A program made the position numbers and the translations under genes. Below are positions 16,101 through 55,454 of a stretch of DNA of 64,000 bases, piece after piece. The notes under the pieces were generated by a model. That model saw only the letters and a program-made list of their open reading frames with translations. It was not told the origin of the DNA and ran no database searches. Positions within the stretch are counted from its first letter, which is position 1, and each line of letters starts with the position of its first letter. The stretch is from NCBI GenBank assembly GCA_964016885.1, contig OZ024740.1, positions 357,926,001 through 357,990,000 on the forward strand, written 5' to 3'. The stretch is from Eledone cirrhosa. Taxonomy: Eukaryota.

Positions 16101-16340
16101 AGGTTTGTTTCCTCACAACTTTCTTAATCATGAACATTTAAAATAGAATTTTGCAGATACTTTTTCGAAGGTATAGATTACGACTATGTTGATGAACTAA
16201 TATATATATATATATATATAGGTGAGTTTTATTGTAGTACAATAAAGCAATGCAAATATCGGATAAGTAGCACTCTACAGTTTGTAGGACTGGAGTATAA
16301 ATAATATATAAGATCAAAAGATGGTTAAAAGAGTTCCAAG

Positions 16341-16411
16341 TATTTTATTATGCGCATTTCAAAAACAAATATCATCATGAGATGATATCTGCGTTTTCAT
16401 CAGATAAAATA
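16341..16411 (-). ncRNA. Type I hammerhead ribozyme (mirror copy, sense to GFAT pre-mRNA)
   Basis: Reverse-complement copy of 16535-16605 in the left palindrome arm. Confidence 0.85.
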
Positions 16412-16534
16412 GGGATACATGATATGAAGGTTAAAAAACACTTGTGAATAGTGAAGTTTTAAATCAACATATCATATGTTGATTTAAAACTTCACTATTC
16501 ACAAGTGTTTTTTAACCTTCATATCATGTATCCC

Positions 16535-16605
16535 TATTTTATCTGATGAAAACGCAGATATCATCTCATGATGATATTTGTTTTTGAAATGCGCATAATA
16601 AAATA
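16535..16605 (+). ncRNA. Type I hammerhead ribozyme
   Basis: Stem I TATTTTAT/ATAAAATA; core CTGATGA (16543-16549); 16-bp stem II with TCAT loop; GAAA (16586-16589); palindromic stem III ATGCGCAT; AUA cleavage triplet (cut after 16597). Confidence 0.85.
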
Positions 16606-16640
16606 CTTGGAACTCTTTTAACCATCTTTTGATCTTATAT

Positions 16641-16671
<31 letters not shown>

Positions 16672-17911
16672 CAACGTTTTTCTTAGCTATTCATAACTGT
16701 ATAAATGATACTGTCCCCGTAGAAAATATCTACGGTATTATCATATCCTGACTGATATCCAATATCAATATTTTGGAATTGAAAGGCATGATAAAAAAAA
16801 AAAAGAAAAAACAAATCTGAGTTTACGTTTAGCTCACTACAAACAGATCGAAAGTATGCCGTAAAAGAAAAAGAACAAACAAAAAAAAAACATTAACGAG
16901 CGGAACTATACAAAAATGACAGTATTATGTTCTTTTCATTTCCAAATAATAAACATTATTTTTAGGTGTGTGTGTGTGGGGGGGGGGGTCATTAAACTAG
17001 TTACGCCCCGAAATCTGGAGTCCGTAGGAAAATTTAATCAAATAAACGGGGTCTTTAGTAAGATTATTTCTAATTTTATCAATACACGAAGGTTGTTGGT
17101 GTGTTAATTTGACAATCTTGAGACACCCATGGGTACTATAGGTGTGTCATTAAAATAAAGAGAAATTGCTAAATCAATATGAACATATGATCACATTCTA
17201 CCATCGGATAACACACTAGAAAGACCATATGATCAAAGCTGGAATGGTTTTGGTCGTATCTGCTCCATCAAGTATTGACATGAGGCTTGTACAATGAATG
17301 TTTTCTTATCAAACAAACTACATGGGATGTGTATCCAAATCGACAAGTCTGGATATTTTCATTGATAAAAATGGAAGCGAAGTTCTAGAAGAATATGAAC
17401 TGAAGATGCCACACAATTTTAAGTATTTGATGTTAAAAATAAAATTAGTACCAATAACAACAGGTATACTGCAAAACGCACAAGCTGTTTTTGAACGTGT
17501 TTTTAGAATAACTTAGAAATCGTCTTTAAAAAAAAACGAGAGGAAAATAAAATAAACAGAAAATATACGTGGAAGATACTCCAATGATATTAAGCTAAAC
17601 GACATTTCTATAACTGAAATAACATGTCGATTACTCAAAAAGTATAATATTGGTTGATTACACATCCATGATGTGAGAAATTTTATCGGATGCTACAGAG
17701 TGTCATGGTAACAATGCGATCAGCATGTTGCTTTACATGGCGAGTCTGATGCTAGGATGAATGGTGGTGTGGTGTTGATTCGGTTGTCGTGTGTGTACTC
17801 GTGGATTGCTTAGTGATTTGGTCACTGTCGAGTAGTGTAGACGAAGGAAGACCAATATGTTTGATACAGTGTGACCAGAGATTGTGCGTGTGCAAGTAAG
17901 TAACAGTGTTC

Positions 17912-17946
<35 letters not shown>

Positions 17947-18877
17947 ACCCTGATCTCATAGGAAATGAAATATATAAACCTCAATAACACAAAGCCTACT
18001 AATTTATTAAATAAATATGAAGAACAAACAACCACAGTCGAATATGTGATGTTATGTATCAGATATGATGTTTGCGTGTACAGGCATTATTAAAACTGTA
18101 TTTACAAAAACTTCTGTTGATGGCATGAATGTCGTTGGCCTGGCTGAGAGAGGGAGAAAGAAACCCCAAGGGTCAGTGTGTGAGACAGTTGACCACCGCA
18201 TCTTCGTCGGTGTGAACTCTGCAACTGCCTGGATTGACTGGGAGCAAGCTATTTATCAGTATTGCATCCTTTTGTCTCGGGGACTCGATAATAAGCAGAT
18301 GACCATTTGATATGTCAAAATTTGACAATTTGGCGACTCGCAAATCAGGCCGCTTTGCTATTGAGGCAAGTATGAAATGACTGCTACAATTTTATATAGA
18401 TACAAGCAACCTATAATGAACATACAACCAAGTATATTACTGGTAACAGGGAGAAAAGGGCAAGTTATTACTAGAAGTTATTAATTTCTTGTTTCTAGCT
18501 CTGTATGAAGACAGAGTAGCAGCAAACCTCTGAAAGTTAGTGATTTTTCAAAACATTGAGTTCAAAGAACGAAGTGATGATTAAATCAAAAGGTTCCAAC
18601 AAAATAGATCAAGAATCTAAATATCTAAAAAATCAAACATTTAATTAAACCTGGAGAAGTCAGATCCAAGTGACTTTTATTATTGATTAACGCAATCTTT
18701 CAACGTGTTCGTAAAAACAGAAGAACAAAATTACTAGCGTACAATGTTATTATAATATTAATTTTATATTACGTAAAATTATATATAATATTAATTTTAT
18801 ATTACGTAAAATTAGCCTAATATATTAACACAAATATATACGTATAATTAATCTATGTATATACAATAATAATTAGC

Positions 18878-19068
18878 GCCGAGCAACATGCTTTGCAGCA
18901 TAGAGCTACGGCCTGTTATGTTCTGTGTTCAAATCCCACCGAGGTTAGCATTGCCTTTCATCCTTACTGAGTCTATAAAATAAAGTACCAGTAAAACAGG
19001 TTGATTTTATCGATTCCCCTCCCCACAAAATTGTTGGCCTTGTGCCTAAATCAGAAAACATTATTATT
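18878..19068 (+). mobile_element. SINE family A, diverged copy
   Basis: gttcaaatccc...gcctttcatccttactgagtctataaaataaagtaccag...ggccttgtgcctaaatcagaaa. Confidence 0.8.
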
Positions 19069-19251
19069 ATAATGCCTAAGTGCAGTCGAGTGTTTTAATT
19101 AGGAATAAAAACAAAGAAATAAATGAAAATAATCAAATTAAAGAAGTTACATCGACATTTAAATGCGTCTTAATCTGCAGTTAGTAATTCATTTTTAAAA
19201 AATAAATCTAAAGATAATAGAGGGTTTTAGAAGAATTTAAGATTTACCTAC

Positions 19252-19258
19252 CACACAT
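19252..19258 (-). CDS. GFPT: GFAT coding exon 1 (ATG TGT G; Met-Cys, the catalytic N-terminal Cys)
   Basis: Minus strand ATGTGTG|gtaggt at a CpG-containing region. Splicing to exon 2 gives [10 protein letters not shown] in the required phase 1. Implies an intron at 3081-19251. Confidence 0.75.
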
Positions 19259-19560
19259 ATTAGAACGATTAAACCGGATGTGCTTACAATAGTGTTGAAA
19301 GATCTTAATGCCACGAATTACAAGCCGCGTAGTTTATATCAGTGTGGGAGTGTGAGGGTGTGTCTTTTCATGTGCAATTGACGTGTTTATGTGTCTTCTT
19401 TATATATGTGCATAAACCGTATGTTTATACGTATGTGTTTGTGTGTAATAGCTGTATCTAAAAGTTTATGTAAGAAAGCAGGTACGTTAAAAATGTTCGT
19501 AGATGAAGACAAGGGAATGGGAGAGAGATAGTTACGAAGCACTTCCGGATAAACGTGGCA
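19259..19560 (-). promoter_or_regulatory. Putative GFAT 5'UTR/promoter region
   Basis: Locally CpG-enriched unique sequence just upstream of the ATG, with an ETS-type motif ACTTCCGG at 19541-19548 and CCGGATGT near 19274. Confidence 0.4.
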
Positions 19561-19745
19561 CTATATGTTTTTTTCTTTTTTACTGAATGACAATATAAAC
19601 ATATAATAAATACAATTAATTATTGCTAGGAACCTCACAAAGATCAAAGCAAGAGAAAAAGAAAAGGAAAGAAAAAAACAACCATTAATTCACCACCGAG
19701 TGCGACAACGGCTTTAACCGAAGCTCATAGCAACAAGAGTTTTGG
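19560..19745 (-). mobile_element. CRE-like element 3' end fragment
   Basis: tacaattaattattgctaggaacct matches the 3' end at 14580-14610. Confidence 0.55.
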
Positions 19746-20057
19746 GGAAGAGTTAATTATCTGCACGTGTATTGATTAGAAGTATTTAAATGATTATTTT
19801 TATAATTCCAATTTTTAAAACTAATGTCATAATTCGTTTTAACCACAATACACAAGCTTTTAACTTTTTTCTCCTGCCAAGTGTCAAATAAGTGAAATTA
19901 AAAGATATAATTATTTATAATAACTGTATGCTTTTACTTAAATAAAATTAAGGAATGAATGATTGTCTCAACTTCGCGCTTTTAATCTCTAACTACATGA
20001 AAAACTTTGTTTCGCAATTTTGTAAGAAAACCATGTTCTCATCAACCAAGTTTTACT

Positions 20058-20322
20058 GAAGGTGCCTGGCTGTTTCAGCGCTTTAGCCTCGCCATCACCT
20101 GTGGTAATTCTGCGAGCGTATTGGTTTGCCTTAAAATATTCCGTTAACCCTTGTGATGTACTGCCGATTGTCGCATTTGGTGGTGAATTAATGGTCGTTT
20201 TTGTTTCCCCTCTTTTTCTTTTCTTTCTTTCACTATAGTCGTATATTTTGGTGCTTTACATTTGTGAGGTCCCTAGCAATAGTTAATTGTATTTATTAGA
20301 TGTGTCTATATTTTCATTCTGA
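20058..20322 (+). mobile_element. CRE-like element 3' end fragment
   Basis: Encodes EGAWLFQRFSLAITCGNSASVLVCLK, then cctagcaatagttaattgtat...tattttcattctg, as in the 14465-16100 element. Confidence 0.7.
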
Positions 20323-20349
20323 AAGAATTGAGAGCAATTTGTAATGTTA

Positions 20350-28765: not shown

Positions 28766-28815
<50 letters not shown>

Positions 28816-28816
28816 T

Positions 28817-29385
28817 CGTTTCTGAATTTGTTTAGCAAGATTCTTTATCTGAAATCGTGTGTTGAAACCGATATTGTTATACTTTGGGAGGGTCATGTTG
28901 CCAATAAGAAACACACGCACCAGTTGCTTTCACTTCAATTTATTATATATTTATAAATTTATAAATTTACAAATTTACAAACTTATAAATTTCTGGTTGG
29001 TTGGTTGGTTCCACAACCAGATAGTTGTTTATATATAGTCATAGTCCTTTCGTCACACACTCTGTGACCTCTTCAGTGACTGGGGATTCCTTTCTTCGTT
29101 TCTGTGCCTTTCCTTTCTTCTATCCTACGCCATTTTGTTTCTGTGTGTGTGTTGTGTGCTCAGTTTGCGCATGCGCCACATCCGGGTGTCTGTGTGTGTT
29201 TGTGTTCATTTTTCTATGACTATGACTATATATAAACAACTATCTGGTTGTGGAACCAACCAACCAACCAGAAATTTATAAGTTTGTAAATTTGTAAATT
29301 TATAAATTTATAAATATATAATAAATTGAAGTGAAAGCAACTGGTGCGTGTGTTTCTTATTGGCAACATGACCCTCCCAAAGTAT

Positions 29386-29393
<8 letters not shown>
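28817..29393 (-). mobile_element. Penelope-like pLTR fold-back element in (TA)n
   Basis: Inverted arms 28871-29046 / 29218-29393 (176 bp), 171-bp spacer, one-sided 54-bp extension, (TA)n on both flanks. An ORF start (MTLPKYNNIGFNTRFQIKNLAKQIQK) runs into the left (TA)n. Confidence 0.8.
29037..29081 (-). ncRNA. Minimal type I hammerhead ribozyme (slightly degenerate)
   Basis: AGTCA-CTGAAGA-G-GTCACA gagtg TGTGAC-GAAA-GGAC-TA-TGACT: stem I 5 bp, stem II 6 bp with one extra G, very short stem III, CUA triplet. Confidence 0.65.
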
Positions 29394-29470
<77 letters not shown>

Positions 29471-29986: not shown

Positions 29987-31658
29987 CTAACAGCACTGCG
30001 ATCGAATGTGGCTTTTTAGCCCAGCCAATGATCTAAAATGTCTTGCACGGAGTCGGCAACCAAAACATTCACTGGGAATAGCCAGCTGTGGTTGGAGTTG
30101 ATGTACTTTTGCATGTCGCTTGAGCCCTCCTGCTGATTTACATTCTCTACCGCATGTTTGGCAAGCATGATGAGTAGCATCTCCAACAGCAGCCTGGTAG
30201 TCAACCACTGGTCTTACTTTATGACTGCGAAGATAACTTTCCAGTCCAGCTTTGCTTAGGCAGAGTCTCGCACAGGCGCTGCATGTCAGCACTATAGGAG
30301 GACCCTCGCCGTCTGGAAGTGCAACAGCAATGCCCTTCCTCACATCCCACTTTACTTTCTCGTATGCGATTCGAGATGCCTCAAAGGCAACTTTTCCCTC
30401 ATATACAGTCTTTCTCCATTTATTACGATCAGCAGCAATATTTTCCCATGTATCAGCAGAGATGTTAGCGTCTTTCAAAGAGGCTTTCAAGGAATCCTTA
30501 TACCTCTTTTTTGGTTTATGTGGCGGTCGTTTTCCTTTAACCAACTCTCCATAAAAGAATTGTTTTGGTATTCTAGAATCCTTCATTCTGGCAAGGTGAC
30601 CACTCCAATGGAGTCGTTGCTTAAGCACAAGAGCTTCTATACTGTCACACATAGAGCTTTCCAAAATCTCGACATCACTGATGTGGTCCCTCCAGTGAAC
30701 GCCATGGATCCGTCTGAGACACATCTGATGGAAACGCTCCAATTGCTTAAGGTGGTGTCGATATGTGACCCAGGTCTCGCAGGCATAAAGAAGACAAGAG
30801 AGCACACATGCCTTGCACACCTTTACCTTTGTCCTCCTGCATATGTCTCGCCGACCCGAGAGTCGCCTTTCTAGCTTTCCGAAAGCATCACTTGCTTTCC
30901 TAATCCTAAGTGAGATTTCACTGTCAAGGTTGCTGTATCGATTGACAGTGCTTCCCAGGTAGACAAACTGATCAACCACTCCAAGTCGTTTACCATACAC
31001 ATAGATATTTGGTTCAGTGTACTGCTTACCAGGGGCAGGTTGGTACATGACGACGGTTTTCTTGAGACTGACAGTCAATCCTAGGGCAGTGCAAGCGTCA
31101 GAAAATGCATTCAAAATGTGCTGCATATCACTCTCTGTGTGCGCTACAAGATCGCAATCATCTGCATACAAGAGGTCTCTTATGATTGATGTAAATACTT
31201 TTGTCTTTGCAGCAAAGCGCCTGATGTTAAATATGCTGCCTGAGGTTCGATATCGGATGTAAACACCATGCTCGCAATTCCTGAATGCAATACAGAAAAC
31301 CATTGCAAAGTATATGGCAAACAGGGTCGGTGCTGGAATATCCCCCTGTTTCACTCCATTTTTTACTGAGATAGGCTCCGACATGTTACCTCCGACATTA
31401 ACCCAAGCCTTCATGTCGTCATGGAAAGACCTAACTAAAGCAAGGAACTTATCAGGGCAACCAAGTTTCTGGAGAACCTTCCATAATGCATCTCTGTTAA
31501 CAGTATCGAAAGCTTTTGTCAGATCGACAAAAACCTGATACAGATCCAAACCTTGTTCCATGCACTTCTCCCGGAGCTGTCTAGCTGAGAAGATCATATC
31601 AGAAGTGCCGCGTCCAGCACGAAAACCAGATTGACTTTCAGGAAGAACACAGTCTGCA
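29987..31658 (-). mobile_element. RTE/BovB-like LINE, 5'-truncated, open RT ORF with C-terminal C2H2-like fingers
   Basis: [46 protein letters not shown]; C-terminal fingers such as CQTCGRECKSAGGLKRHAKVH. The N-terminus in the ORF track is a microsatellite artefact. Confidence 0.95.
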
Positions 31659-31659
31659 A

Positions 31660-31755
31660 TGCATACATACATACATACATACATACATGCATACATACAT
31701 ACATACATACATACATACATACATACATACATACATACATACATACATACATACA
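31660..31755. repeat. (CATA)n microsatellite between two divergent LINEs
   Basis: Directly visible tetranucleotide run. Confidence 0.95.
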
Positions 31756-33950
31756 TCACATATGAACAAGCAGCTGGACAGAAAGGGGTTTGGGGATGTG
31801 CTGAACAACTCCTAATCAACAAAACTGCGATGTCGGAGGTGCGACAACTTAGGAGGAATATGGCTACAGTCTGGCTGGACTACAGGAAAGCTTTCGATTC
31901 TGTTCCCCACTCTTGGATGATAGAGGCCCTCCAACTTGCTAAAGTCCCAGACATTATTATCAGAGCCATAGAGAAGCTGTCTTCTTCTTGGGCTACTATC
32001 CTAAGGTTAAAGACAAAGGGGGAGGTCTCTATATTCACTGATAAATAAAATATCGCAGGGTATATTTCAGGGAGACAGTATCTCTGTGATATTGTTCATC
32101 TTGTCATTAAACCCCTTGTCCTTTCTGCTCAAGAAATGTGAGGGAGGACAGAAATACGAACCTAACCCATAATTTCTTTGTGGACGATCTGAAACTCTAT
32201 GCCAAGAACATGGATGGAATGAAGAAAAATCTTGACCTGGTTACAACGTTCTCAAAGGATATAGGAATGGAGTTTGGCGAAGATAAATGCTCATACATGA
32301 CTGTAAAGCGAGGAAAAACAACAACCCAATCTAGCAACATTGTCATCAATGGCCTAACTGTTTCACCGATATCTGATGAGGACTGCTACAGATACCTGGG
32401 GATAGATGAGAATATATCCTATAATGGTATCTGTAATAAAGAACGCGTAACCAGGGAATACTACACCCGATTAAGAAAGATCTGGTCATCGGAACTCTCT
32501 GCGCAAAACAAAACAGTGGCTCACAATGTGTTTGCTGTGCCTGTCCTAACACCAACGTTTGGAATACTCAATTGGACGATAAACGAAATCCGAGCAGTTG
32601 ATGTTGGAACTCGAAAAATACTAAACAACACCGGAAACTTCCACATCAACAGTGACATAGACCGCCTTTACTTGAAACGTAAGCAGGGAGGCAGAGGCCT
32701 AACATCGGTCCAGACAACATTTGAATGTCGCATCATATCTCTCCGACAACATCTACGAACCTCGAAGCATAGGAGCCCGTCTCTCGAGCAAGTCTTTCTG
32801 CATGAAACATAAGATCATGAGAGTTGGGAAGGAACTCCTCGAGAGATATTCCCTGTGTGATAATCAAAAGCTCACACCCAGGGAAGTCACTCAGCAGTAT
32901 CGCAGTGAATCCATGGATGAAAAACTGCAAGCATATCAGCAAAAAAATCATGCATGTATATGTTGCCAGGAAACTCCAGAGTGAGAGTAATATAGATAAG
33001 GAAAGTAGTCTATCTTGGACCAACAACCGCTATATTGGCTCCCACTTTGAAGGATACGCTTTTGCAATCCAAGAACAGGAAATACCTGATTCACGAAATA
33101 TCTGATTCACAAAAGAGATAGGGATGCAGGCAAAACACCTAGATGTGATAACAAGTGCAGACTCTGCAGAACTAACATCGAGGATATCCCCCATGTCATC
33201 AGCAGCTGTCCAAAGATGTCATCGCGGTACTATCTACCTATGAGGCATGATGTAGTGGCCAAAATGCTGTACAATGCAGTTCGTAAAAAAGATAGCCCCG
33301 ATAATAAACACATTAAAAGCTACAGCAATGTGGAAGACATCCATCTACATAATATGAAAGAGTACTGGTGGAATGTTCCCGTAAAAACCCCAATAAAATG
33401 CAGGCATAACAGACCAGATATTATGATATGGGACAGGGAGAAGAAAGCATGCAGAGTAGTGGAAATTAGCTGCCCAGCAGATGCCAATATAATATCAAAG
33501 ATTAGTGAAAAGGAGAATATTTATGCAGAACTGATGAGAAATCTGCAGATACTCCACCCTGATTACACCTTCAGATTTATGCCTGTGATTATTGGGGCAC
33601 TGGGGTATGTTAGTAACTGCCTCAATACAAATCTTGAGAAGCTAGGCTTCACAGGAACAGAAAGAACACAACTAGTTAGGAAATTACAAGTACACTCCAT
33701 TAATGGAACAGTAAAAATATGTAAAACATTCCAAAAATTTTGCATCTAATAACTGCATATACACATGTACAGATGCAAAGCATATACACATGCACACATC
33801 CACACATACAATAACATCCATATCTACACATGCATGCATACATACATATCTACCTAGTTGATGTGTACATTCTAATGAAAGAGTCTTGTGTCTATGTTAG
33901 AAACCGACTCTCTCTATTGGTAAAACTTTATGAAATTATAAAACCAGAAG
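31756..33950 (+). mobile_element. R4/Dong-like RLE non-LTR retrotransposon, 5'-truncated, frameshifted
   Basis: EQLLINK, WLDYRKAFDSVPHSW, GIFQGDS, FFVDDLKLY, YRYLGI, CCHC knuckle (CRLC..H..SC), RHD and NRPDI...VEIS endonuclease motifs. (CATA)n on both sides. Confidence 0.9.
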
Positions 33951-37089: not shown

Positions 37090-39490
37090 CTCTTTAGCAT
37101 TCACATTGAATTGTCAAATGTCATGTTCATCTATTCGCAATATTTTCACTTAATTATACTCAAGAGGGTTATCAATTTTATTTGTTTGTAATTACTTTAA
37201 TTTTCTATGTACAGACTTGAAATTTTGTCAGTAGATGTTTAAATAACTATAATTTACAATTATATATTTTTACCTGATTTTTTTTTGTTAAATTTGACTT
37301 TTATGGGCAGGTGAAATTAATTAACAGGTGTAAAAGTAATAACTTTATGGATAAACACAAACATTTAAACTTTATCTGCCTTACCTGTTAGATTCGTTGC
37401 AAAAATCCAATAATGACCTAGATGCTGATTTCCATCAATTCTAGCAGTTTTCCGAACAGGTGAATTAATTAAAAATGCAGGTGTAATCAGTACAAGGTTT
37501 TAGTCTTTCTCTACATTCCAGGCAAATATTTTCATTGAAAAAAATGTATAAAACCTTTTCACCAGTCAAAATAATATTGGCAATGTACTCTTACACAATG
37601 TACGGTGTAAATTTACGTAACAGAATGTTCCCAATATATAAGTTCATTAACAGGTGTGATGCAGGTGTGACACAGGTGTTTTTGTATATGTGTTCTAATA
37701 TATTTTTAAAATATTGTTTTCAATATTGTCAGACGATATTTCTATCGTGATACTGCCCAAAATACCCTTTACATAATGGCACTTTGCAAAAGGAACACAT
37801 AAATAGGGTTTGGATTGCGTAACCTTTAACAGTTTTTCTCTTTTGCAAAGAGCACAATCGGCAAACCTTCCTCCTACCATCAATTCTCTCCACTTTGTGA
37901 AAATCAATATTTTCTTTGTGAACCACTGCTAATTTTGATTTTTTCCCAGCTTTGTGTTTGCGAGAAGTATATCCTCCACGTAGCTGGGGTACAATGTCCA
38001 CACGAAACTTCATATGACAGTAGTCCTTTGGTGGTGGTGGATCCTTGTGGCTTTTAGTAAATACAATAAAAAAATTCACAATGGTTAAATTCACTAAAAA
38101 CCACAAGATGTACCTCCACCATTTCTTTCCAGGGCGTCCAACTGGGTAATATGCACAATACTGGTCAGATTTGTCAACCCCACCCATATATTTATTGTAG
38201 GAGAGGTTACTAAAGGTTTATCCTCAGCCCCAACACCTGGTTGTTGGTTAGAACTCAGGAACAAAATTTGCCGTTTGTCTTTGAACACTGTGGCTAACAT
38301 GTTCCCTTTTTGCATTTGGAGAATGTCCCCTCTGTTTTTCAGTTTCGCAACTTTTATTTCTTGGGGTAGCCCTTTCCGATTGCTCATTATTGTGCCGCAG
38401 GTGTACGTATTTACAAGGGAAAGATCCTCTGCTAAAAGCACCGAAGAAAAAAAACGGTCAAAATATATATGTCTGTGTTGAGAGTGGAAGGGTTGGGTCA
38501 GCGACCACACAACATCGTAACCCAACCCGTGTTTTCTTTCTCCGTTATGTTTTTTTCCTGTGAAAACATCAAAGTTTACACAGTATCCTGTGTCCGATTC
38601 ACACAGTTCCCACACTTTGATGCCCCATTTTGTGGGTTTAGCTGGCATATACTGTCTGAAATGAACCCTACCCTTACACCCAATCATACCTTCATCAATA
38701 CTAAGATTTTTTCGACAACATTTCAATTAATGGTCGTACTTTTTACAGTGGGTCGTAATTTGTTTCATTTCTACCAAGGGCATTTGAAGTATCAACCAGG
38801 TGCAAATACTGGTTTAATTTGATGAATCTCGTTTTTGCTAAAATACTAGATATATAAGGGTCACCATACCTTATATCAGTACTTCAATAATTCCACATTC
38901 TTGGAAATTGTTTAATACCAAACATATTTATGGTAAAAAACGCTTTCATTTCAGCAGAATCTGTCGGACGCCATAACAGATCGGGTTTTCCTCGATTAGA
39001 ATTTCGAAGAAAGTTTGTGGTAAAAATAAAAAATAAAAATCCAGTGCTTTAGCATCGGGTGGTAATGTGTGTTGTGGTCCAGTATTTTCAGTAAAATCCG
39101 AAACATGTATTGGTGTTGTTTCTTTCAACCACGTTGCTGTTTTTTCAATGGTGTCAGTCAAATCTTTCACTTTCAAAGTAACTATCATCATTATCAGATA
39201 TATCAGAAATAAATATATCTGATTCGTTTGAAGATAAATCACTATTATTATCTTCTGTTTCTTTTTGATCTCGAATGTCGTCGGATGTAAAACCTTCAAA
39301 TTCGTTGTCGCTACTTTCGGAAGCCATGTTACACTTTCAACGTTAAAAACACGTGTTATCGCAAGTTCTTTAACTATACTAAGAGTTAATTTTCGCGATC
39401 CAAGTAATGAATAACGTTTCATTACTTCTGTAAATTATGCTTTATTGATATAATATATTATTCTGTACACTACTGAAGACGTTTATGCTT
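37090..39490 (-). mobile_element. piggyBac transposon, decayed
   Basis: Acidic N-terminus MASESSDNEFEGF (ATG 39327), SIDEGM...YMPAKPTKWGIK, FDRFF, GGVDKSDQ and a C-terminal Cys-rich domain. Frameshift at ~38190 and an internal deletion. Terminus ctaa|CTCTTTAGCATTCA at 37090. Confidence 0.9.
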
Positions 39491-39548: not shown

Positions 39549-39550
<2 letters not shown>

Positions 39551-41248
39551 GATAACAAGTTATCGATTTAGGTAATCCAGTTAGAGGTTGTGAGTACTCT
39601 GTACTATGGATAGTTTTAACGTACGGCGTTGTTTGACTCAACAAGAGGTTTCCTTAGTTAGGTAGCGAGTTTGCGAGAATTCCTATGGAGTAATAGTAGT
39701 GAAAGAATGAAGAATAACATAGTCAGCTGTACAAAAAGGGTTTTATTTACAGTATTAACAATTGTTTCATTGATCAGGTGAGTCTAAAGGCCGCTGATCA
39801 CTCGAAGTTGCGTCACTCGATCTTAAATACAGTGCGTGTTTCTCTGATCAAATCATCGGAATACTGGAGGGTGTAACACATGGCATTGGTATTTATAGAT
39901 ACATCGGAAAATCAAGCGAATGAAAACAATAACATCAATAATAAGAGATAATAAAAGATAATAATAAAGAAGATAGAATGAAAATTATAAAGATGTAAAA
40001 AATAAGCAAAAAATAAGTACAGAATACGATTGCTGATAATAGTAGTGGTGGTTGTGGTAGTTGAAGTTATAGTGGTGAGTAAGTGGATGTGTAAAATAGT
40101 GATGATGGTAAAGATAACAATAACATGAAAAGAAATACTAAATACATGATATGTAGTATAAATGCAAGAGGTATAATCAAATTTTAGAGGATTAAAATAA
40201 AAAAAAAAACAGATAAAAAATAATAAATACAAAATAAGTAAGAGAGGAAGAGATAAGGGACAGGAGACAGAGAGTGAGGATAAGGATTCGAGGATGAGAC
40301 ATAAGGGGGTAAGGTGGGGTGGGTGTGTGGGAGAAGTAGATAGATAGAGAATAAAAAGTGAAAGGGGCAGTGATGATATAGGGTGGTTAATGTCTGATTG
40401 TTTTATTTTAATGGAGGTGATGCGGCTAGAGAGAGAGAGAGAGAGAGAGAGTGAAAGAAAGGTTGGGAGATTTATGATGTTGATTTAATGACCAGTTGGT
40501 CAGTTGACAGCTAATAACAGTCGGTGGTGTGGAGCTAGTACATTAAAACCCGGGTGGTTCTGCTTGAATTCTGAGATTGCTGGATCGAATCATGCCGGTT
40601 TGAAGTTAGAGAACTTGGTAGCTGCTTTGTACCTACAGAAAATTGATCGTTCTATTTTGTTGTTAAGCAGCATTTTATCGTACTTTCATATTGCAAAGTC
40701 CGCAGTGGGACATTCTATTATTGTAGGCCCTTGCACTCGATAACTTCGACCAGCTAATCTCATATTCCTGGTTGTTGTCCTTAAGCTGCCAGATTTTATT
40801 GGCCAGCGTCGTTGAGTTCTCTAGTCTACGGTTTTTTACAGAATGTCTATGTACATACCATCTATTTTTGAATTCCCCAGCAGTAGAACCTATGTAGTGC
40901 CATGCTAAGTTGCCTGATTTGATAGTACACAGGTACACTATACTTAATTCCAGGCATCTATTTTGTAGTGGGCATTTATCTGGCAGGTGACAGTGACACT
41001 TGGAGGCCTTCCTGTGTGCAGGTTCTCCGTTGCGGTTTTGTATGTTGTTAGGGATGGGCTGAGATTTAGGTTTATTGATGTTTTGTTGCGATGTGCCCTG
41101 GCGTGTGTGTGGTTGTGATGTTGTTATGTGTTTGCGTTTTGTATTTGGTGCTATGGTGTATGTTGGTAGGTTATTTTCCTTAGAGATTCTTCTATAGTTG
41201 ATTTTATACATGTGTGATTCTATGTTGGCTGCAATAGAGTAAGAGAGC
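39549..41248 (-). mobile_element. Penelope-like element, 5'-truncated, GIY-YIG endonuclease plus pLTR
   Basis: ORF 40675-41211 has a Cys linker (CHC...CPL...CL), IVY...YIGST..FKNRW..H and CGLC. Downstream non-coding tail carries an HHR; (TA)n on both flanks (39497-39548, 41249-41262). Confidence 0.9.
39750..39866 (-). ncRNA. Type I hammerhead ribozyme with long stem-II loop (variant core)
   Basis: CAGTATT-CCGATGA-TTTGATCAG[66 nt]CTGATCAAT-GAAA-CAATTG-TT-AATACTG: stem I 7 bp, stem II 8 bp, palindromic stem III ACAATTGT, GUU triplet. Core has U4->C. Confidence 0.7.
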
Positions 41249-41339
41249 TATATATATATATAAATATTCATTTTTCTTTGGATTTTCTCTGTAGAGATAT
41301 GTTGAATACTCTCTAGGAGTGTGGAATAATGGATTATGT

Positions 41340-41533
41340 AATAATTGTTTCTACTTTTGGCACAAGGCCAACAATTATCTCGTGTATTATCGGTACTTTA
41401 TTTTATCAACCCACGTAAGGATGAAAGGCAAAGTTGGCTTCAGCGGAATTTGAACTCAGACCGTAAAGGGATGTAACTCTATGCTGCAAGGCATGACGTC
41501 CGACCTTCTACTGATACTGCCAATCCACCGCCT
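41340..41533 (-). mobile_element. SINE family A
   Basis: Reverse complement of the 9893-type sequence. Confidence 0.9.
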
Positions 41534-42386
41534 TCTGGATTATGTAATAATGTAGACCTCATAGGTTCATTATGTAGTGTATTGAAACATATGTAAGTCT
41601 TTCCAGAATACAATAAATAAATCCTTGAATATCAGCAAATGTGCCTTGTTTTTCTATTAATCTGTGTGTGTGTGTGTGTGTGTGTATATAATTTTCGTCA
41701 TCATCATCATTTAACATCCGTTTTCCTTGCTAACAAGAGTTGGCTAGGTCTTCACTAACCGAGTCAGTATTGAAGCAGGTCTACTGACCTCTGTGACAGG
41801 CCCGGGGTATCCACATCTTGTTTACATACAGTCCCACACTCTATTAAGTGCCTTTTATCATGCTGTCAGCACTAGAGAGGTTGTTGTGTCTTTAACAACT
41901 GAAGGGTTTTCTCAACCCTTTTGGCATAGTTTATGGTTTCTACAGTGGGGTGCCCTTCTTGTTGTCAACCAATTTTGAGTGCTATTTCTAGCATCATTAA
42001 AAACATGTCATAGTGTCCTGATATACAGATATATATATATGTGGTTGAATGATGCACATGTTGTTGAATGTACCATGCTGTTTCAATAAGGACATGGTTT
42101 GTATGCTATCTATTGAATATTTTTCTACAAAGAATTCCCCTTAAGGACAAAATTTCTTCCAATATTAGCAGTCTTAATTTATTGAGATAATTTCTTAATT
42201 GCAGAAACTGCAGTTTGGGACGTTATATGAGCAATCATGACTTATTTTAATTTATCTAGCTTATGTTGCCCCAATTGAGATTTTTGGCTTAAGTTAAATA
42301 TGTGTAAATGCTTCTCTGATTTGACGTTTATCTTTTCATTAAGATTTCTAAGTATATTAGAAACAAATAACTTTCTGTTTGATATA

Positions 42387-44802: not shown

Positions 44803-45131
44803 AATAATTGTTTCTACTTTAGGCACAAGGCCAGCAATTACCCAGTGCATTACTGGTACTTTATTTTATCGACCCCGTAAGGATGAGACCCCGTAAGGAT
44901 GAAAGGCAAAGTCAACCTCGGCAGGATTTGAACTCAGATCGTAAAGGGACGTAACTATGCTGAAAAGCATGGCGCCCGACCCTCTACCGATACTGCCAAT
45001 CCACCACCATCATTTGTTTTAATAATTGTTTCTACTTTAGGCACAAGGCCAGCAATTACCCAGTGCATTACTGGTACTTTATTTTATCGACCCCGTAAGG
45101 ATGAAAGGCAAAGTCAACCTCGGCGGGATTT
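44803..45131 (-). mobile_element. SINE family A, full copy (with short internal duplication) plus tandem partial copy
   Basis: gaccccgtaaggatga duplicated at ~44871-44902; second partial copy at 45020-45131. Confidence 0.9.
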
Positions 45132-46899
45132 GTTTTAATAATGATGTTAAGAAAGGCGTGGATATCATAGTCTCATTTCTCCTCTCATATAAATGTGAAT
45201 CTGTTTAGGAAACAATGCAGGATTTCAAATTGTGTGTGTTGTTCTAATGTCAAATATGGCAACATTATCTGGGAATCATAGGCCACTAAGTTATGAGCAG
45301 CCCTTTTCTAGCAGTGGGATTCAGTTCAACCAAAAATTGGTTTGCAGCATTCAAATAGTAATTTAACTCTTACCATCCTGTACATCGCAAAACATTTTTG
45401 AAAAACATAAACCAATACTTTGACTGCATCACATTAAACATTTAAATGTTTATTTTAGTTTACTGCAAATTTTCACAGTGATCTGTCTGCTAATGAAAAT
45501 ACTATAAACATTTGAATTAACAAACCTTGCTAAATCTTTACAGGTGTTGACAAGTTCAAAAATATTGTATGTAGTAGAGAGTACACCATATATTAAATTA
45601 AGTAAATCTTAAAATATGATAAAGAGAATGCCTGCATGAGTAATAGAGACAAAGAAAGGAAATTGTTCGAATTAACAGTTTGTCTTCAAGATTATACTAG
45701 AAAATTTAAATAAAAGGTTAGTGTTTATATAATTATGACATTATTTGTGCTGTACAAAAAGTCATAATGGGTAGCTGTTGATTGCCTATGGTTTTTGTAA
45801 ACAATATGCAATGAAAAGGCATGAAACTGATTGCAACTAAATGCTGAGTCAATAAGAAAGTTTCTACATGGTTACACAATCTGCTAGAAACAATAGCCAA
45901 CTTCCTCTATAAACTCATTGTATTGCCTTAGAAAAAATAAGTAAACACTGAATAATGTAGCTCTACATGTACTTATGACAATTGGATGGTCATGGCTAGA
46001 ATTGAAGTGTTTTGTTTTCAGAAGACTGTTCAATTAGGACTCACATGGGGCTCAAGTTGTTGACCCGCTCCTGGTGACCCTGGAACCTGATCACTGATCT
46101 CGATCAGATGAACAACAACAAGGTGTGGTAGCAACAGTCTTATATGCAAGAAGGACTGATATATGGCTAAAAAACAACACAACAACAACTTGCTATATGA
46201 GACCAGATCATAAGCATATTTTATTTCCAATGAAGTAGAAGAAATATAACACATAAGATAACATAAAATGTCATGCTGAAAAAATAAAAAATAGTTATTG
46301 GGTTTATACTAGCCATGAGAGAGGGTTGTGTTATTTATAGAAATAATTTTAACTTAATATTGTGTACTGCAGGAAACTGCATTAGAAAATCATACTTGAA
46401 AAATACAATAGAACATGAAAAATTGAAGTCTTTACTCTAATACTGTTTCAAAATCTAATACTATATTCACAATCTGTCCAGTAGTAGATATACTATAAAC
46501 ATTTGTATTAAGAAACTTGCTTTTAGATTTTTGTGCTCAATCCTTACAGGATGTTAAGAGTTAAAGGGGAGGCAATAAATTTACAAGGTATCAAACCTTT
46601 TCCAATAGGTTTCATATATACTGGAATGAATTATCAAGTGAGTAAAGTGTAATCAACCAAACTAAAATAGTCTTGATAGATATGAGTAGAAGACTTAATT
46701 TGAAATATCCTTCAACATATTGAAGGTGTGTACAAGCTGAGGAAACTTCCTCAGCTTGTCCACACCTACTGCTAATCAATCAACTATAAATGGCAACTAA
46801 ATATTCCTCAAATCACACCCTCCTCCTCCTCCTCCTCCTCCTCCTCCTCCTTCTTCTTCTTCTCCCCATCCTCTTCCTCCTCCCTCTTCCTCCTCCTTT

Positions 46900-50017: not shown

Positions 50018-53000
50018 GAGTCTCAGTCATTGATGTTAGTTAACTGGAAAGTTTGTTGAAATGAATATCAAGCCACTACCTGCAGCCTCAGATATTCAGG
50101 ACGTATCGGAGGGTTGTTGCTGTTCCCAGCAAGCATGCCTTTTGAAGCGTTCCAAAAAGCGTGAAGGGGCCAAATTTCTTTAACTATCCCTGGAAATTTT
50201 TTGAGATAGTCCCTAGTGCGCCTATGACAATCGGGATCACTTTGACTTCATGGCAGTTCCAAATCCTTTTTACCTCCCACTTTAAGTCCTGGTATCGGTT
50301 AATTTTCTCCCTCTCCTTCTCTTGCACTCTCGTGTCGAATGGGCAGGCCACATCCACAATCAGGCACGATTTTTTTTCTTTGTCCACAACCACCAGGTCA
50401 GGTCTATTGTGTTCAAGTTTCTTGTCCGTCTGTATCCTAAAATCCCACAGCACCTTCACCTGATCGTTTTCTATCACCGCCTCTGGCTTATGCTCATACC
50501 ACTTCTCAGAATGTGGTAAATTGTTTACTTTTCATAGGTGCCAGTGGATCACCCTGCCCATCACATCATGTCTCCAGCCCTTATAGTGAGTCTGGGCTAG
50601 GTGTTTACACTCGGATACAATGTGAGCCACAGTCTCCTCTCTCTCTCCACAGATCCTGCACAGTGGGCTAGCCTCCTCCTTGTAAATATGGTGTTTCAAC
50701 CACTTCGTTTTGAGGACCTGCTCCTGCGCAGCCATTAACATTCCTTCTGTAGCCTTTTTAAGGTCTCCTCTTTTCAACCAGTTCCATGTCTGTGGATCTC
50801 TAAATTCAGTTTTCTCAAAGAAGGTACTATGAAGGGATTTTTCCTGAAGGCTGCTCTTTCTCCTTGATGTTATTTCCTCCTTGGACATCCTCTGGCCTAT
50901 TGTCCCCTCCTTCAGTACAGTTCTGAGCATTGGCTCCTTACTATCAGTCACGTATTTGTGTAGGTTGTTTTTTTCCATCTGAACACAGTCCTCTATGCTG
51001 ATAAGACCTCTTCCACCTTCAGATCTCCTTAAGTAGAGTCTATCGACAACACTCCTCTTGTGGAACATGTTGTAGATAGTCAATAGCTTCCTAGTCTTCC
51101 TATCCATTTCTTTTTGTTCAGCAACATTCCATCTCAGAATTCCCGCACTGTACCTAATAATAGACACAGCTCGGGAATTTACTGCACTTATGGCATTCCT
51201 ACTGTTCAGATGTGACTTTAATACGCTCCTTACTCTCCGAATGTATTCAGTTCTTATCAATTCCTTCATTTTTTTGTTCTTGATGTCATCATCCTGCTCT
51301 CACTTTTCGCAGTACACTGGTCAGGGGCATCAGGGCAAGGACAAACAACAGAGGGGACAGACTATCACCCTGGAAGATACCTCTCTTGATCTTCACACTT
51401 CCCTAGGATTCTCCAGTTGATGTTAACTCTGTTTCCCAGGACTTCATACTTTTGCCCAACAACTGTCTGATGTTATCTGCCACCTTGAAGATCTCCAGGC
51501 TTTTGGGGATCCAAGAATGAGGCACCATGTCAAATGCCTTTTTGTAGTCTATTCATCCCATGGCAAGACCAGTGTGTCTCCTCTTGCAATTCCTCATTAC
51601 CATCTTATCAATAAGTAACTGGTCCTTTGTACCACGTGACTTCTTTCGGCATCCTTTCTGTTCGTCCGGTAACAAGTTGTTTGTGTGGAGGTGATGGTAG
51701 ATTTCCTCAGACATAATGCTTGTCAACAGTTTCCACATTACGGACAGACATGTGATAGGTCTATAGTTGGTAACATCATTACCCTTGATTCGGTCTTTCA
51801 TTATCAGAACTGTGGTACCTTTTGTCAACCACTCTGGTACCTCACCTGACATCAAGCAGTCATTGAACATGGTTGTCAGTTTCGGGTGGAGGGATGTTAT
51901 ATTTTTAATCCAATACCCCTGCACACCATCTGGGCCTGGTGATTTCCAGTTGGTTTTTTTTTTGGCCTGTGCCTTAAGAGTTTCAACTGTGATACTCAAA
52001 TCAGTTTGTTGGTGTGCCTGTTCACTAATCTCCTTCTGTACTGTCTCAATCCACACTGCCTGGTCATTATGTTTAACATCCTGCTCCCATATTCCTCTCC
52101 AGAATGTTTTAGTTTGTTCCGCCTCAGGGATCAAGTCGTTGCCTCTTTCTTTCCCTTCAAGCTGTCCAAACAGCATCTTCTGGTTGTTGTCGAACATGCG
52201 GTTCTGTCTATACTGACTGACTCTGTTCTCATATCGCCTGATTTTTGCACTCTTTGCTACAATGCGTTGCTTCAGTTCCTCTATGATAATATTTAGCTTT
52301 TTCCTCCTAGTTTTGTACTTTATTTCCAGTCTATTTTTAATGTCTATGTTTTTTAGTGTCCCATTCAGTAGGGACTCAAGCTTTCCAATGTCATTTCTCA
52401 TTTCCCTGATTTGACCACTCAGTCGTTTCTTCCACCAAGGCTCTGCTCTTTCTTGTCTGTTGTTTCCTCTCGCTTTTATACCAAGTAGTTTCCTCACCGT
52501 ATTTGCTGTTGCTTTGAGGATATTGTTGCACTGGTGAAGGCTCCTCGCCTCAAGGTATGGGATGATTTTGTTTACCTTAGCTGTTGTTTCTTTTAACTTT
52601 TTCCTGTCTACAAATCTTAGGTTCATAGGTCTCCCACTATCATTGTTCAATTCATCTACCACTAAGTTTAGGATATCAACCAAATCTTGTCCTAGCCCGT
52701 CAGCATTCATCTCCTCAGTGGTCGTATCTCTGCTCCAGGTATTATTTATCTCAGCATTCAGATCATTGTCTGCTTCGGGTGGTTCCTCCGTTCTCTCGAC
52801 CTCTTCACCTTCATTTCCCACTGGCTCGTTTGCCTGGCATACTCCACCCTCCATCTCCAAGCTAATCTCTCTGCTCAGTTCCTCCAGTTCCAGCTCGCTT
52901 ATCCACCCATTAGTTCTTATTACCCAAGCCTGCCCAGCCAATTTTTGTTCATCTAATTTAAATAGACCAATCTCGTTCCAGATGTTATCCATCCGTTTTC

Positions 53001-53310
53001 TATAGCCTTTCTCCTTGGGGTTACTCTTCAGGTAACATTGCATAACAGTTCTATTCAATTCTTTCGTCCAGTTGGTTCTGGTCCCTTTCCTTCTTCTTCC
53101 TCCGACACCAGCAGTATTTGGTTGACAGCCAGGTCCCTGTTGCTGAGCCAGGGAGCACCTGTTGGGTGAGAGTCTGTCACATGACATTCTAGTCTCCATT
53201 TCACCGTTATTCGAACTGTTTAGGTTCGACATTTAAACACTCTTATCGAGGATTGGCGAATGTATGGTTACATAACCACCGGTGATTTCATCGCCGCTGG
53301 TGGTTGTGTC
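50018..53310 (-). mobile_element. R4/Dong-like RLE retrotransposon, near full-length, inactivated
   Basis: ORF 51553-53232 (GYRKRM..IW, PWWKKRL, WKSPGPDG, NYRPITCL, EQKGC, DQLLID). Stop before IDYKKAFD; GIFQGDSLSPL, then a deletion; then CRIC..H..EC, RHD and NRPDL..D endonuclease. Confidence 0.93.
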
Positions 53311-53476
53311 ACTCCATGTGATTTTTGTGTGTCATTATCACGCTGTAGACGAACATAAATAAACAAACAAATAAACAGGCAAAAAAACCCCCCAAAAATG
53401 AATAAGCATAAGTTTCATTGTAATGTTTCATTGTAATTATTATTATTATTATTATTATTACTATTATTATTATCAC

Positions 53477-53680
53477 CGGTAGAGCATTGGATAAAATGGT
53501 TAGCCGCATAGTGTTAAGGCCATTTACATTCTGAGTTCAAATCCTGCTGAGGTTAGCTTTGCCTTTCATCCTTTAGGTCGATAAAATAAAGTACCAGTTA
53601 TGCACTGGGGTCAATTTAAGCGACTTTCCCTTTCCCAAAAAATTGTTGGCCTTGTGCCTAAATCAGAAACCATTGTTATT
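53477..53680 (+). mobile_element. SINE family A
   Basis: gagttcaaatcc...gcctttcatcctttaggtcgataaaataaagtaccag. Confidence 0.85.
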
Positions 53681-53964
53681 TATATTATTATTATTTCCTT
53701 GTATATCTGTATATTCACATACATCCCACTGGGTCTGAATCAGGGGCCTGGGATAGCTGTTGGTTTGTTATGGTACATTCTTTCTCAGCACCATAGATGG
53801 TATTTTGTTGAGAGTTTGAGAAAGCAAGTTACACACACAGAGACAAGCATATACAGAGAATATTCATAGATTCAAAAAGCCTATATACAAATTTTACAAA
53901 TACATAGAGTCAGTAAAACCAATTAGAGTGTTTACAGGTAATATATTTCTTTTATAAATGTCTA

Positions 53965-54332
53965 TCTATCTAAGGCGGGTAAAATTCCTGAGATCCAGGG
54001 ACGAATTCTCTCCAGCGGTCTCTGTCCCTCATTATCGCTGCCATGTCCTGTGTCTCCAGCAGACCAGTGTCTGTCCTTAGGGCATCAACATACGTTAACC
54101 TTGGTCTTCCTCTTCTAGTGTGTCCATGTAGGGGCTCCCACAGGAGCACTGAGTGCAATGTCAACTCTGTGTCACTTTTGAGCTGACTTTTGGGATGCTC
54201 CCATACAGCTCGGAGTCTTTCATCCTCAGTCTATACTGATTAATGTTCAGAGCCATCCTCAGCATTTTCGTGTAGCACCCATCCACCATCTGAGTGAGTT
54301 TCTTGGTCAGTGTCCAAGTCTCAGACCCGTTA
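53965..54332 (-). mobile_element. RTE-like LINE 3' fragment (different family)
   Basis: YNGSETWTLTK...DGCYTKMLRMALN and LLWEPLHG..RRGRPRLTYVD; (ATAG)n tail. Confidence 0.8.
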
Positions 54333-54642
54333 TAAATGTATACATGAATGTGCATACATTTATAAATGTATGCACATTCAAAACCAGGATTGAACACAAA
54401 ATCATATAATGGATAAAGTTCAACCTTTGGTTCATGGATGTGTCACATTGACAATGCTTTTTACAAAGTTACATTAACAATGCTCTTTGCAAAATGTAGG
54501 CAGCACTAGTGAGTATGATTTTCTGAATTTCTTTTATAAAAGATTTACCTGGTTTATGATTCAAGAATTTGCCAGTTCTCTTGTTTATTCGACCCAGTAC
54601 TCCAACTTTAACAGGAATGGCTTTTATACCTCACATTTTTAA

Positions 54643-54863
54643 CCCTTTAGCATTCACACTACTCTCTATATACTATTGTATTTTTGTAGTAAACACTTTA
54701 TCTTATATAATTATCTCACATAATATCGAGTCTATGAGATTTTGATGTTATTTATTTTGAGAACAATATCTCAACGTCAGTATGAGTGGCCAGTTACTGC
54801 CAGTTTTAACAGAAAGAGGTGAGATATTTCTGGCCGGATACGGCTGGTTTGAATGCTAAAGGG
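54643..54863. mobile_element. piggyBac-type MITE, complete (221 bp)
   Basis: TTAA|CCCTTTAGCATTCA...TGAATGCTAAAGGG|TTAA, perfect 14-bp TIRs. Confidence 0.9.
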
Positions 54864-55295
54864 TTAAAATCCCTATTTCAAGTTTCTTATACTTTGAAAT
54901 GTTTTCAAAGTGTTCTATAAAATATTTTTATCACCCATGGTTAACCACTACTCTCACCAGCAGCAGCATCATCATCACCACCATCTTCCTCATACCCCCA
55001 GAATTACATGATGATGATGATAACAATGATGATTGCAGCAAGAATGACAACAACAACCATGATGATGATCACGACCATCAACATCACAACAGCAACAACA
55101 ACAACATTACAGTTGAAACAAACACGATAAGTTATGAAGACATGGAGCTAATTTTAATTCGCAGACAACACCTACATACATATCTGATTGGTACTAATAT
55201 AATTTCTTAATAAGATAAGATTAGTCAAAAGACATGCCTTCATATATTAAATGTAAAAATCATATATATGCAGATAAACAGGAAATAACTCAATA

Positions 55296-55454
55296 TGAAC
55301 CAGGGTGGGGACAAGAATTGTGCCTGTTATACCTGTCTTTCAATATTAATCAGGATCTAATGACTCAAGTATATATATATATATAGTCATTAGAGCCTGG
55401 TTAATATTGAAAGACAGGTCTAACAGGCACAATTCTTGTCCCCACCTTGGCTCA
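55296..55454. repeat. ~70-bp inverted repeat around a (TA)n centre
   Basis: Arms 55296-55365 and 55385-55454 are reverse complements with a few mismatches. Confidence 0.85.

Follow-up and report, generated by a model that had tools for sequence, protein, structure and literature searches.

Hammerhead-bearing fold-backs at (TA)n runs in Eledone cirrhosa as probable by-products of twin priming by three PLE families

The window analyzed here is a 64-kb stretch of the Eledone cirrhosa genome with four loci of interest. Locus 1 lies between a left (TA)n target run (16198..16220) and a right (TA)n run (16646..16671) and consists of two inverted arms of the pLTR of an apparently Hydra-like PLE family, F1. 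The tailed arm (16221..16472, minus strand) starts at the pLTR start, a position that is the 5' begin point in 22/80 sampled F1 copies, and the tail-less arm (16474..16645, plus strand) stops at a fixed internal end. The arms are 99% identical over 172 nt (16301-16472 and 16474-16645). The tailed arm carries a type I hammerhead with an exact core, a long stem II and a palindromic stem III (16341..16411, minus strand; core from 16403, cut after 16349), which is mirrored in the other arm (16535..16605, plus strand; core from 16543, cut after 16597). Locus 2 is formed by the 3' end of a Neptune/Nematis-like family, F2, with a tailed arm at 28817..29217 (minus strand) and a tail-less inverted arm at 29218..29393 (plus strand), identical (100%) over 176 nt (28871-29046 and 29218-29393). 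A (TA)35 run lies to its right (29390..29460) and a shorter run at 28800-28816. A complete hammerhead is confined to the tailed arm; it is a minimal type I motif with exact core (29037..29081, minus strand; core from 29076, cut after 29042). The tail-less arm has the 3' side of the hammerhead only and begins 5 nt ahead of the cut site, as does the arm of another copy (L098). Locus 3 (39549..41247, minus strand) is a 5'-truncated copy of a third family, F3, flanked by (TA)n runs; it has a tailed 3' end without an inverted partner and is not a fold-back. Its hammerhead (39750..39866, minus strand; core from 39859, cut after 39757) has a U4C core change and a long insert in stem II. Further upstream in the element, a linker and a GIY-YIG endonuclease remnant are encoded (40675..41247, minus strand), with a frame disrupted near the C-terminus.

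Among the four loci no significant similarity was detected apart from a TA-rich match of 13 nt shared by loci 2 and 4, in agreement with a sequence-only reading of this DNA that had found them without obvious resemblance. That reading had rightly seen a longer one-sided tail at two loci (1 and 2) and a GIY-YIG endonuclease at one (locus 3). It had further described all four loci as (TA)n-associated with a hammerhead or hammerhead half, and three of them as inverted repeats with outward hammerheads. The association with (TA)n holds throughout; hammerheads are present at loci 1-3, and inverted repeats with outward hammerheads at loci 1 and 2. Locus 4 (55296..55454) is a single-copy inverted repeat with arms of ~70 nt, ~90% alike, and its (TA)n is central, in the loop, and not flanking. 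A descriptor allowing two core mismatches and relaxed stems found no hammerhead there, and core and stems I-III are lacking. Locus 4, single-copy and without a hammerhead, is ruled out as a PLE piece, a MITE family or a ribozyme; it is an unrelated lone hairpin outside the PLE set.

The descriptor search of the 64 kb yielded three hammerheads with exact core, all in loci 1 and 2, and none in each of 20 block shuffles. A fourth, with one core change, lies in locus 3; one-mismatch matches were obtained in 5/20 shuffles. The U4C change itself is present in 24/30 F3 copies nearest to the window copy, and exact core plus stem III are kept in 47/67 F1 copies. An Rfam search over the window returned no hammerhead family, only microRNA models far below gathering scores. 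All hammerheads of loci 1-3 point outward from the locus centre, and in all three families the motif lies within the pLTR and the tail is an optional feature of one end. The motifs of loci 1-3 are candidate self-cleaving ribozymes; weak cleavage would be expected from the U4C core of F3, and none from fold-backs.

Genome-wide, exact motif matches numbered 7,234 for F1, 11,399 for F2 and 289 for F3. Copy L275, a complete F1 unit measuring 3,709 bp, has a pair of direct pLTRs together with an 808-aa open RT and GIY-YIG frame. An F2 copy (L096) has a 1,180-aa open RT and GIY-YIG frame, a partial tandem and an inverted tail-less copy; the combination of tandem and inverted copy was seen in L096, L100 and L278. 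By-eye reading of the F1 and F2 proteins identified YRDD/YVDD and C-terminal nuclease motifs in a single frame. ESM Atlas look-alikes of both proteins at 0.96-0.98, a single source, include GIY-YIG and RVT_1 clusters; Pfam and PDB searches gave no RT or nuclease match. The copies of F3 examined contain nuclease and RT-thumb fragments only. Loci 1-3 are ribozyme-bearing pLTR-end leftovers, each of a different PLE family. According to the available text of PMC8557442, F1 shares with the Hydra clade DKT, the CxCX5C linker, CxxC and CxH, the absence of the CCHH pair, the hammerhead and (TA)n; it differs in its 3.7-kb unit, Hydra elements being 'generally' <3 kb, and in having RWI at the likely place of RWK. 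The F3 endonuclease remnant of locus 3 shares 31% identity with the F1 protein (E 7e-24) and has the same linker; the U4C core of F3 differs. Like Neptune/Nematis elements in the same text, F2 has a CX4CxxC linker and a CCHH motif (L096, by eye), two cysteines between the GIY and YIG halves, a minimal hammerhead and TA targeting; its long Asn-rich N-terminal insert differs, and the assignment is to Neptune and Nematis jointly. By these motifs, F1 and F3 appear to be Hydra-like and F2 Neptune/Nematis-like PLEs.

The ends of insertions were analyzed in the first 80 F1 and first 100 F2 motif matches by position, with an exact motif required; these samples span the first 63 Mb (F1) and 48 Mb (F2) of one contig. 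In each family the 3' ends fall at two fixed points, tailed and tail-less, which are ~80 nt (F1), ~56 nt (F2) and ~148 nt (F3) apart. The distribution is bimodal (F1, 33 tailed and 47 tail-less; F2, 44 tailed, 53 tail-less and 3 other). TA directly follows the 3' end in 72/80 F1 and 92/100 F2 copies, compared to 1.9% of window positions; target-site duplications are unreadable inside (TA)n. Adjacent pairs at ≤6 kb were outward in 39 cases (15 F1, 24 F2), never inward, and direct in 3 F1 cases and 1 F2 case, spaced 1-4 kb. One tailed and one tail-less end were found in 64/69 classifiable two-ended insertions (mixed versus like ends: F1, 31 versus 3, binomial p = 4e-7; F2, 33 versus 2, p = 2e-8), and in 11 further insertions the partner end fitted neither class. 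For 29/65 F1 and 32/76 F2 insertions no inverted partner was detected at ≤1,450 nt; 27/65 and 11/76, respectively, were compact fold-backs. These end and pair counts bear out the proposal that several PLE families target (TA)n and leave short outward hammerhead fold-backs with the tail on one side. On the question whether the TA runs preceded insertion, flank matches were obtained for 15/51 insertions, nearly all low-complexity.

Junctions between the arms were compared after excluding 5' ends at -67, -69, -83 and -362, which are alignment breaks in variable repeats. Junction pairs are distinct in 23/27 compact F1 and 11/11 compact F2 fold-backs, the repeated ones being located where the pLTR starts. 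At most junctions the overlap is 0-3 nt. The two arms have no sequence in common in 6 F1, 2 F2 and 4/30 F3 loci. In 12/23 compact F1 and 4/11 compact F2 cases the tail-less arm extends further 5'. Arm divergence is 3.1% (F1) and 2.0% (F2) within an insertion, and 6.4% and 4.5% between insertions.

This architecture is known for PLEs (PMC8557442, PMC3846280, PMC4209133) and is not a new class. The available texts of PMC8557442 and PMC3846280 describe 5' truncation, tandem pLTRs, an inverted head-to-head copy, a one-end tail, a pLTR hammerhead and (TA)n targets for EN+ PLEs, the same as in F1-F3. The tails differ, measuring ~80, 56 and 148 nt in F1-F3 against 30-40 bp; moreover, the one-tail pattern was counted here and is near strict, and compact pLTR-only fold-backs are very frequent. 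Minimal PLE hammerheads of type I with a short palindromic helix III, in opposite-strand pairs 100-700 bp apart, were thought to represent truncated PLEs (Cervera and de la Pena 2014, PMC4209133); here such pairs could be connected both with complete elements and with the tail rule. Non-LTR retrozymes are likewise short, non-coding and PLE-related with type I hammerheads, but they are head-to-tail with same-strand ribozymes and form circles, whereas the fold-backs are head-to-head with ribozymes on opposite strands (PMC7229834; bioRxiv 10.64898/2026.07.22.740005). The 39 outward pairs are not head-to-tail, and the four direct pairs, at 1-4 kb, are not tandems of short units.

Twin priming at two fixed internal sites fits these data better than the published self-priming model. 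Loci 1-3 represent truncated copies, each from a different one of the three PLE families, and we consider it probable that the fold-backs are by-products of twin priming, arising anew with each insertion. The PLE endonuclease would make a cut through both strands within a (TA)n run, and a pair of RT subunits sharing a single uncleaved RNA would start at two internal sites, one per DNA end. Joining would then take place between the 3' ends of the two cDNAs, which overlap by 0-9 nt. A tail-primed cDNA halting short of the inner site would leave arms without common sequence, and one running past it would create a duplicated fold-back. If the transcript is primed on its first pLTR, both cDNAs would run off the RNA 5' end and yield a compact palindrome of 300-600 bp, as at locus 1, with the hammerhead carried passively inside the pLTR. 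Some observations stand against twin priming. The similarity of arms within an insertion could also be explained by gene conversion or by two RNAs from one source locus, about half of the insertions have no inverted partner at ≤1,450 nt, and five have like ends. Insertions without a partner imply that one-ended insertions occur too, or that partners are too short or too far away. Whether twin priming is programmed, with a protein dimer seating two RTs at fixed positions of a single uncleaved RNA, one RT per end of the (TA)n double-strand cut, and leaving thousands of compact inverted repeats, we judge to be evenly balanced. If so, the one-tail rule, head-to-head inversions and solo pLTR palindromes would all follow, and ~3,700 compact perfect inverted repeats (extrapolated for two families) would yield long dsRNA on read-through.

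In the twin priming of L1, two target-strand primers yield an inverted 5' part, and non-overlapping arms look alike in both systems. In the PLE families, both starts are at fixed internal points, and the arms usually overlap, which results in duplication. The PAc protein (Poseidon, green anole) nicks and extends both strands in vitro, with AT-rich cuts and an uncleaved RNA template; two internal RT start sites bound the tail, and a dimeric form is predicted for the protein (Frangieh et al. 2024, PMC11167929). The available text of that report contains no statement of one start site per opposite insertion end or of the origin of inverted copies. The available texts list the origin of inverted copies and one-sided tails as open (PMC8557442) and the later steps as unvalidated (PMC11167929). 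In the open-access main texts searched, no statement of a one-tail rule or of twin priming for PLEs was found. These young, high-copy families provide a large natural record of PLE integration, and since F1 and F2 each have an open-frame copy, the twin-priming model is testable in vitro.

Self-priming, in which a cDNA or antisense template folds back on a short palindrome and is extended along itself, with the endonuclease then trimming one end as far as the tail-less point, was proposed from palindromes at rotifer PLE head-to-head junctions, as given in the available text of PMC3846280. A 6-bp palindrome at the F1 pLTR start, where several copies are perfect palindromes, speaks for it, as does the greater similarity of arms within than between insertions. 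However, a self-copied strand cannot yield arms without common sequence (12 cases), a tail-primed fold-back cannot give a longer tail-less arm (16/23 unequal compact cases), and most junctions, with their short overlaps, have no hairpin. As the only route self-priming is already refuted, and as an overall account we consider it unlikely; the near-strict one-tail rule and the non-overlapping arms favour twin priming as the main route. Less likely still is an origin of the inverted arms in later events independent of the element, either (TA)n breakage with fold-back repair or assembly errors, and of all readings we give this one the smallest chance. Locus 4, an inverted repeat around (TA)n without a family, and the pair L050/L051, which resembles a later duplication in that both ends are tailed and the flanks are identical, would suit it, but random repair would not produce one fixed internal arm end per family with the opposite end type at the other side.

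The sequence-only reading had instead suggested a distinct mobile class, that is, non-autonomous fold-backs that are transcribed, processed by the hammerhead, perhaps circularised, and re-inserted whole. The frequency of compact fold-backs and the mostly intact hammerhead core are compatible with this, and six perfect-palindrome arms (five insertions) are all confined to one F1 subfamily. Yet short and long copies are intermixed on the tree, with 16-17 label changes compared to 17.0-18.5 after shuffling of the labels, and the palindrome arms require 5 changes for 6 rows (155 columns, low resolution). Junctions are mostly distinct, and the fold-backs do not behave as a lineage of their own with a common junction. 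Both outer ends also coincide with the two start points of the autonomous element. Furthermore, the paired hammerheads have opposite strand orientation. In a fold-back RNA the sense ribozyme is expected to be locked in a duplex with its own antisense copy, which would make circles unlikely. We therefore regard a distinct mobile class as very improbable.

The twin-priming model assumes an uncleaved template. Sequence reads through the ribozyme cut site in 78/80 F1 and 98/100 F2 copies, which suggests that templates were mostly uncleaved RNA and argues that the ribozyme is unneeded for the template. A start of the inverted arms at the ribozyme cut was rejected, as arm ends show no pile-up there (F1, 1/80 in 120-129; F2, 2/100 in 175-184). 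Cap copying, considered because of an extra G ahead of the F1 start, was seen at 6/24 junctions and was dismissed as too weak. Four F3 loci (copies L293-L296) resemble one duplicated insertion.

The sequence-only reading had described four (TA)n-associated loci, and all were recovered at its coordinates: locus 1 (16221-16640), locus 2 (28817-29393), locus 3 (39549-41248) and locus 4 (55296-55454). At loci 1 and 2, arms of 172 and 176 nt, respectively, form near-perfect inverted repeats that are bordered by (TA)n and extended on one side. An exact-core descriptor for type I hammerheads matched three times in the 64 kb, twice in locus 1 as mirror copies and once in locus 2, versus none in 20 block-wise dinucleotide shuffles of the window. 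When one core change was permitted, only locus 3 (U4C) was added; at that level, 5 of the 20 shuffles also gave one motif. The hammerheads of loci 1-3 were not detected by Rfam. A whole or half hammerhead had been proposed for every locus; this held for loci 1-3, locus 3 with the U4C change, and failed for locus 4, where no motif was found even at two core changes and relaxed stems.

Loci 1, 2 and 3 represent three new Penelope-like element (PLE) families, F1, F2 and F3. In the 3.0 Gb genome, 7,234 exact matches to an F1 26-mer, 11,399 to an F2 motif and 289 to an F3 23-mer were counted, these being arms and not insertions. F3 is older, with about 90% identity between copies. The expectation of several (TA)n-targeting PLE families was borne out, F1 and F2 being tied to open-frame copies. 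A whole F1 unit (L275) has two direct ribozyme-bearing terminal repeats (pLTRs) spaced 3,709 bp and an 808-aa frame starting directly after the tail. Its protein contains DKT, YRDD, a CxCX5C linker, CxxC and CxH and lacks the CCHH pair, a set matching the description of Hydra PLEs in the available text of PMC8557442. The F2 copy L096 has a 1,180-aa frame (L096:794-4333) together with a partial pLTR at its 5' end and a tail-less copy in inverted orientation; the frame shares the CX4CxxC linker and CCHH with Neptune/Nematis PLEs. A long Asn/His/Thr-rich insert in its N-terminal region preserves the frame and resembles N-rich inserts known from rotifer Penelopes (PMC3846280, as far as available). 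F1 and F2 proteins gave no significant alignment; the nuclease remnant of locus 3 is 31% identical to the F1 protein. Atlas look-alikes bear GIY-YIG and RVT_1 families, and Pfam and PDB searches gave no match. The U4C core recurs in 24 of the 30 F3 copies closest to the window copy (window:39750-39866; L061-L090), so this family, which has thousands of candidates, spread while carrying a ribozyme of predicted low activity. U4C has been described as a natural variant whose activity in vitro is much reduced (PMC3088659, available part).

Copies were sampled in genome order to avoid a bias towards full-length matches (F1, first 80 of 100 listed places; F2, all 100). Each family has two 3' end points, one tail-less and one tailed, which are separated by about 80 nt in F1 and 56 nt in F2. 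In F3 the tail ends at 352; among 30 loci, 14 have an inverted partner ending at 201-208 (four of the 14 look like a single duplicated insertion) and 3 have one that ends elsewhere. TA followed the ends in 72/80 F1 and 92/100 F2 copies versus 1.9% background. Neighbours within 6 kb were outward-facing in 15 F1 cases (0 inward, 3 direct) and 24 F2 cases (0 inward, 1 direct). Merging yielded 65 F1 and 76 F2 insertions, with an inverted partner in 36 and 44. Excluding those with an unclassifiable end (2 F1, 9 F2), a tailed end was paired with a tail-less one in 31/34 F1 and 33/35 F2 insertions, which upholds the suggested arm/tail asymmetry. Among compact (short, pLTR-only) one-tail fold-backs, the tail-less arm was longer in 12 F1 and 4 F2 cases, the tailed arm in 3 and 4, and both were equal in 8 and 3. 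Divergence between arms within an insertion was about half that between insertions (13 F1, 23 F2 pairs). One F2 pair (L050/L051; G000:C7:30218875-30221354) has two tailed outward-facing ends with identical flanks and is probably a later inverted duplication or an assembly feature.

The 5' ends lay within one base of the pLTR start in 22/80 F1 copies and bunched at 34-39, immediately before the hammerhead, in F3. Both clusters would mark RNA 5' ends, and we take them to resemble initiator elements. F2 5' ends bunched at 70-90 (14/100) and within the hammerhead at 139-166 (11/100). A motif adjoining an F2 cluster (window:29126-29146) resembles a YY1 site and is a possible promoter element. No pile-up of 5' ends was seen at the ribozyme cut among the 80 F1 and 100 F2 copies, and 78/80 and 98/100 extended 5' beyond it, indicating that templates were mostly uncleaved. 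This agrees with the in vitro result for an anole PLE (PMC11167929, available part).

The copies show directly that ends are fixed at two points, that targets are TA, that paired copies lie head to head under the one-tail rule, that junctions vary and that the cut site is read through. According to the available text of PMC11167929, the anole PLE protein, a predicted dimer, cuts both strands of AT-rich DNA, extends both and starts at two internal RNA sites bounding the tail. It is likely that one reverse transcriptase begins at the inner RNA site from one DNA end and a second uses the tail site from the opposite end, probably on the same RNA, and that the two cDNAs are then end-joined. Self-priming has been put forward for PLE inverted copies (PMC3846280, in the part available) and may produce some perfect palindromes. 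It cannot, however, yield arms without overlap, and arms without any common sequence were found in 6 F1, 2 F2 and 4 F3 cases, a tail-only piece being joined inverted to an arm ending at the inner point. In about half of the insertions no partner lay within reach, which means that one-ended events, or partners that are short or distant, exist.

Compact fold-backs made up 27/65 F1 and 11/76 F2 insertions, extrapolating from the samples to about 2,400 and 1,250 genome-wide, which are candidate sources of dsRNA if transcribed. They had been suggested to form a distinct mobile class. Their junction pairs are mostly distinct (23 F1, 11 F2), and the repeated ones all lie at the F1 pLTR start, the site of a short palindrome. 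In a tree of 55 F1 arms (155 columns; arms starting after position 2 excluded; bootstrap unsettled), short and long copies were intermixed in both subfamilies, and label changes were near shuffled values. The six perfect-palindrome arms belong to one F1 subfamily, yet require five changes. There is no new mobile class. Fold-back RNA is predicted to form one long duplex enclosing the whole F1 ribozyme or, in F2, the cut site and 3' strand. Retrozyme circles arise from same-strand tandem ribozymes (PMC7229834; bioRxiv 10.64898/2026.07.22.740005; both in part), which are absent from F1 and F2 fold-backs.

The observation is real and mostly known. The available parts of PMC8557442 and PMC3846280 already describe PLEs with inverted 5'-truncated copies, a tail on one side, (TA)n targeting and hammerheads within the pLTR, and a 2014 paper reported hammerheads paired on opposite strands at spacings of 100-700 bp (PMC4209133, likewise). 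Recently active PLE families are listed in a recent repeat annotation of octopus, whose accessible text does not give this anatomy (PMC13282606). Literature searches turned up neither the one-tail rule nor twin priming described for PLEs; supplements or subscription papers may contain such a description. The value of the finding is the counted one-tail rule, which constrains PLE integration.

Locus 4 is unrelated to this set. It is a 159-bp single-copy hairpin (window:55296-55454) whose arms, about 90% matching, surround a central (TA)n. A DNA search of the genome returned one candidate, a pattern search its own two arms and one 1-mismatch match, and across most of the arm length the contig depth equalled that of the unique flank (runs X1-X3, one sample). 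An old relic and local fold-back repair are candidate sources, and the locus might act as a small-RNA hairpin if transcribed.

Other transposon fragments (window:5403-5822, 10546-11313, 29987-33749, 37729-38726 and 50532-53232) were labelled by eye as mariner-like, as RTE-like and other LINE reverse transcriptases, and as piggyBac-like; no exon of a host gene was recognised in the window. A tRNA-like SINE family has several copies (window:20349-21060, 9897-10082, 44803-45143 and 41320-41540), including a face-to-face pair at 20.4-21.1 kb, and no hammerhead was detected among them. At three genomic loci (L037, L004 and L157), TA runs next to other PLE ends contain nested PLE copies from different families, and the L004 flank has one more hammerhead-like motif, which belongs to a different family.
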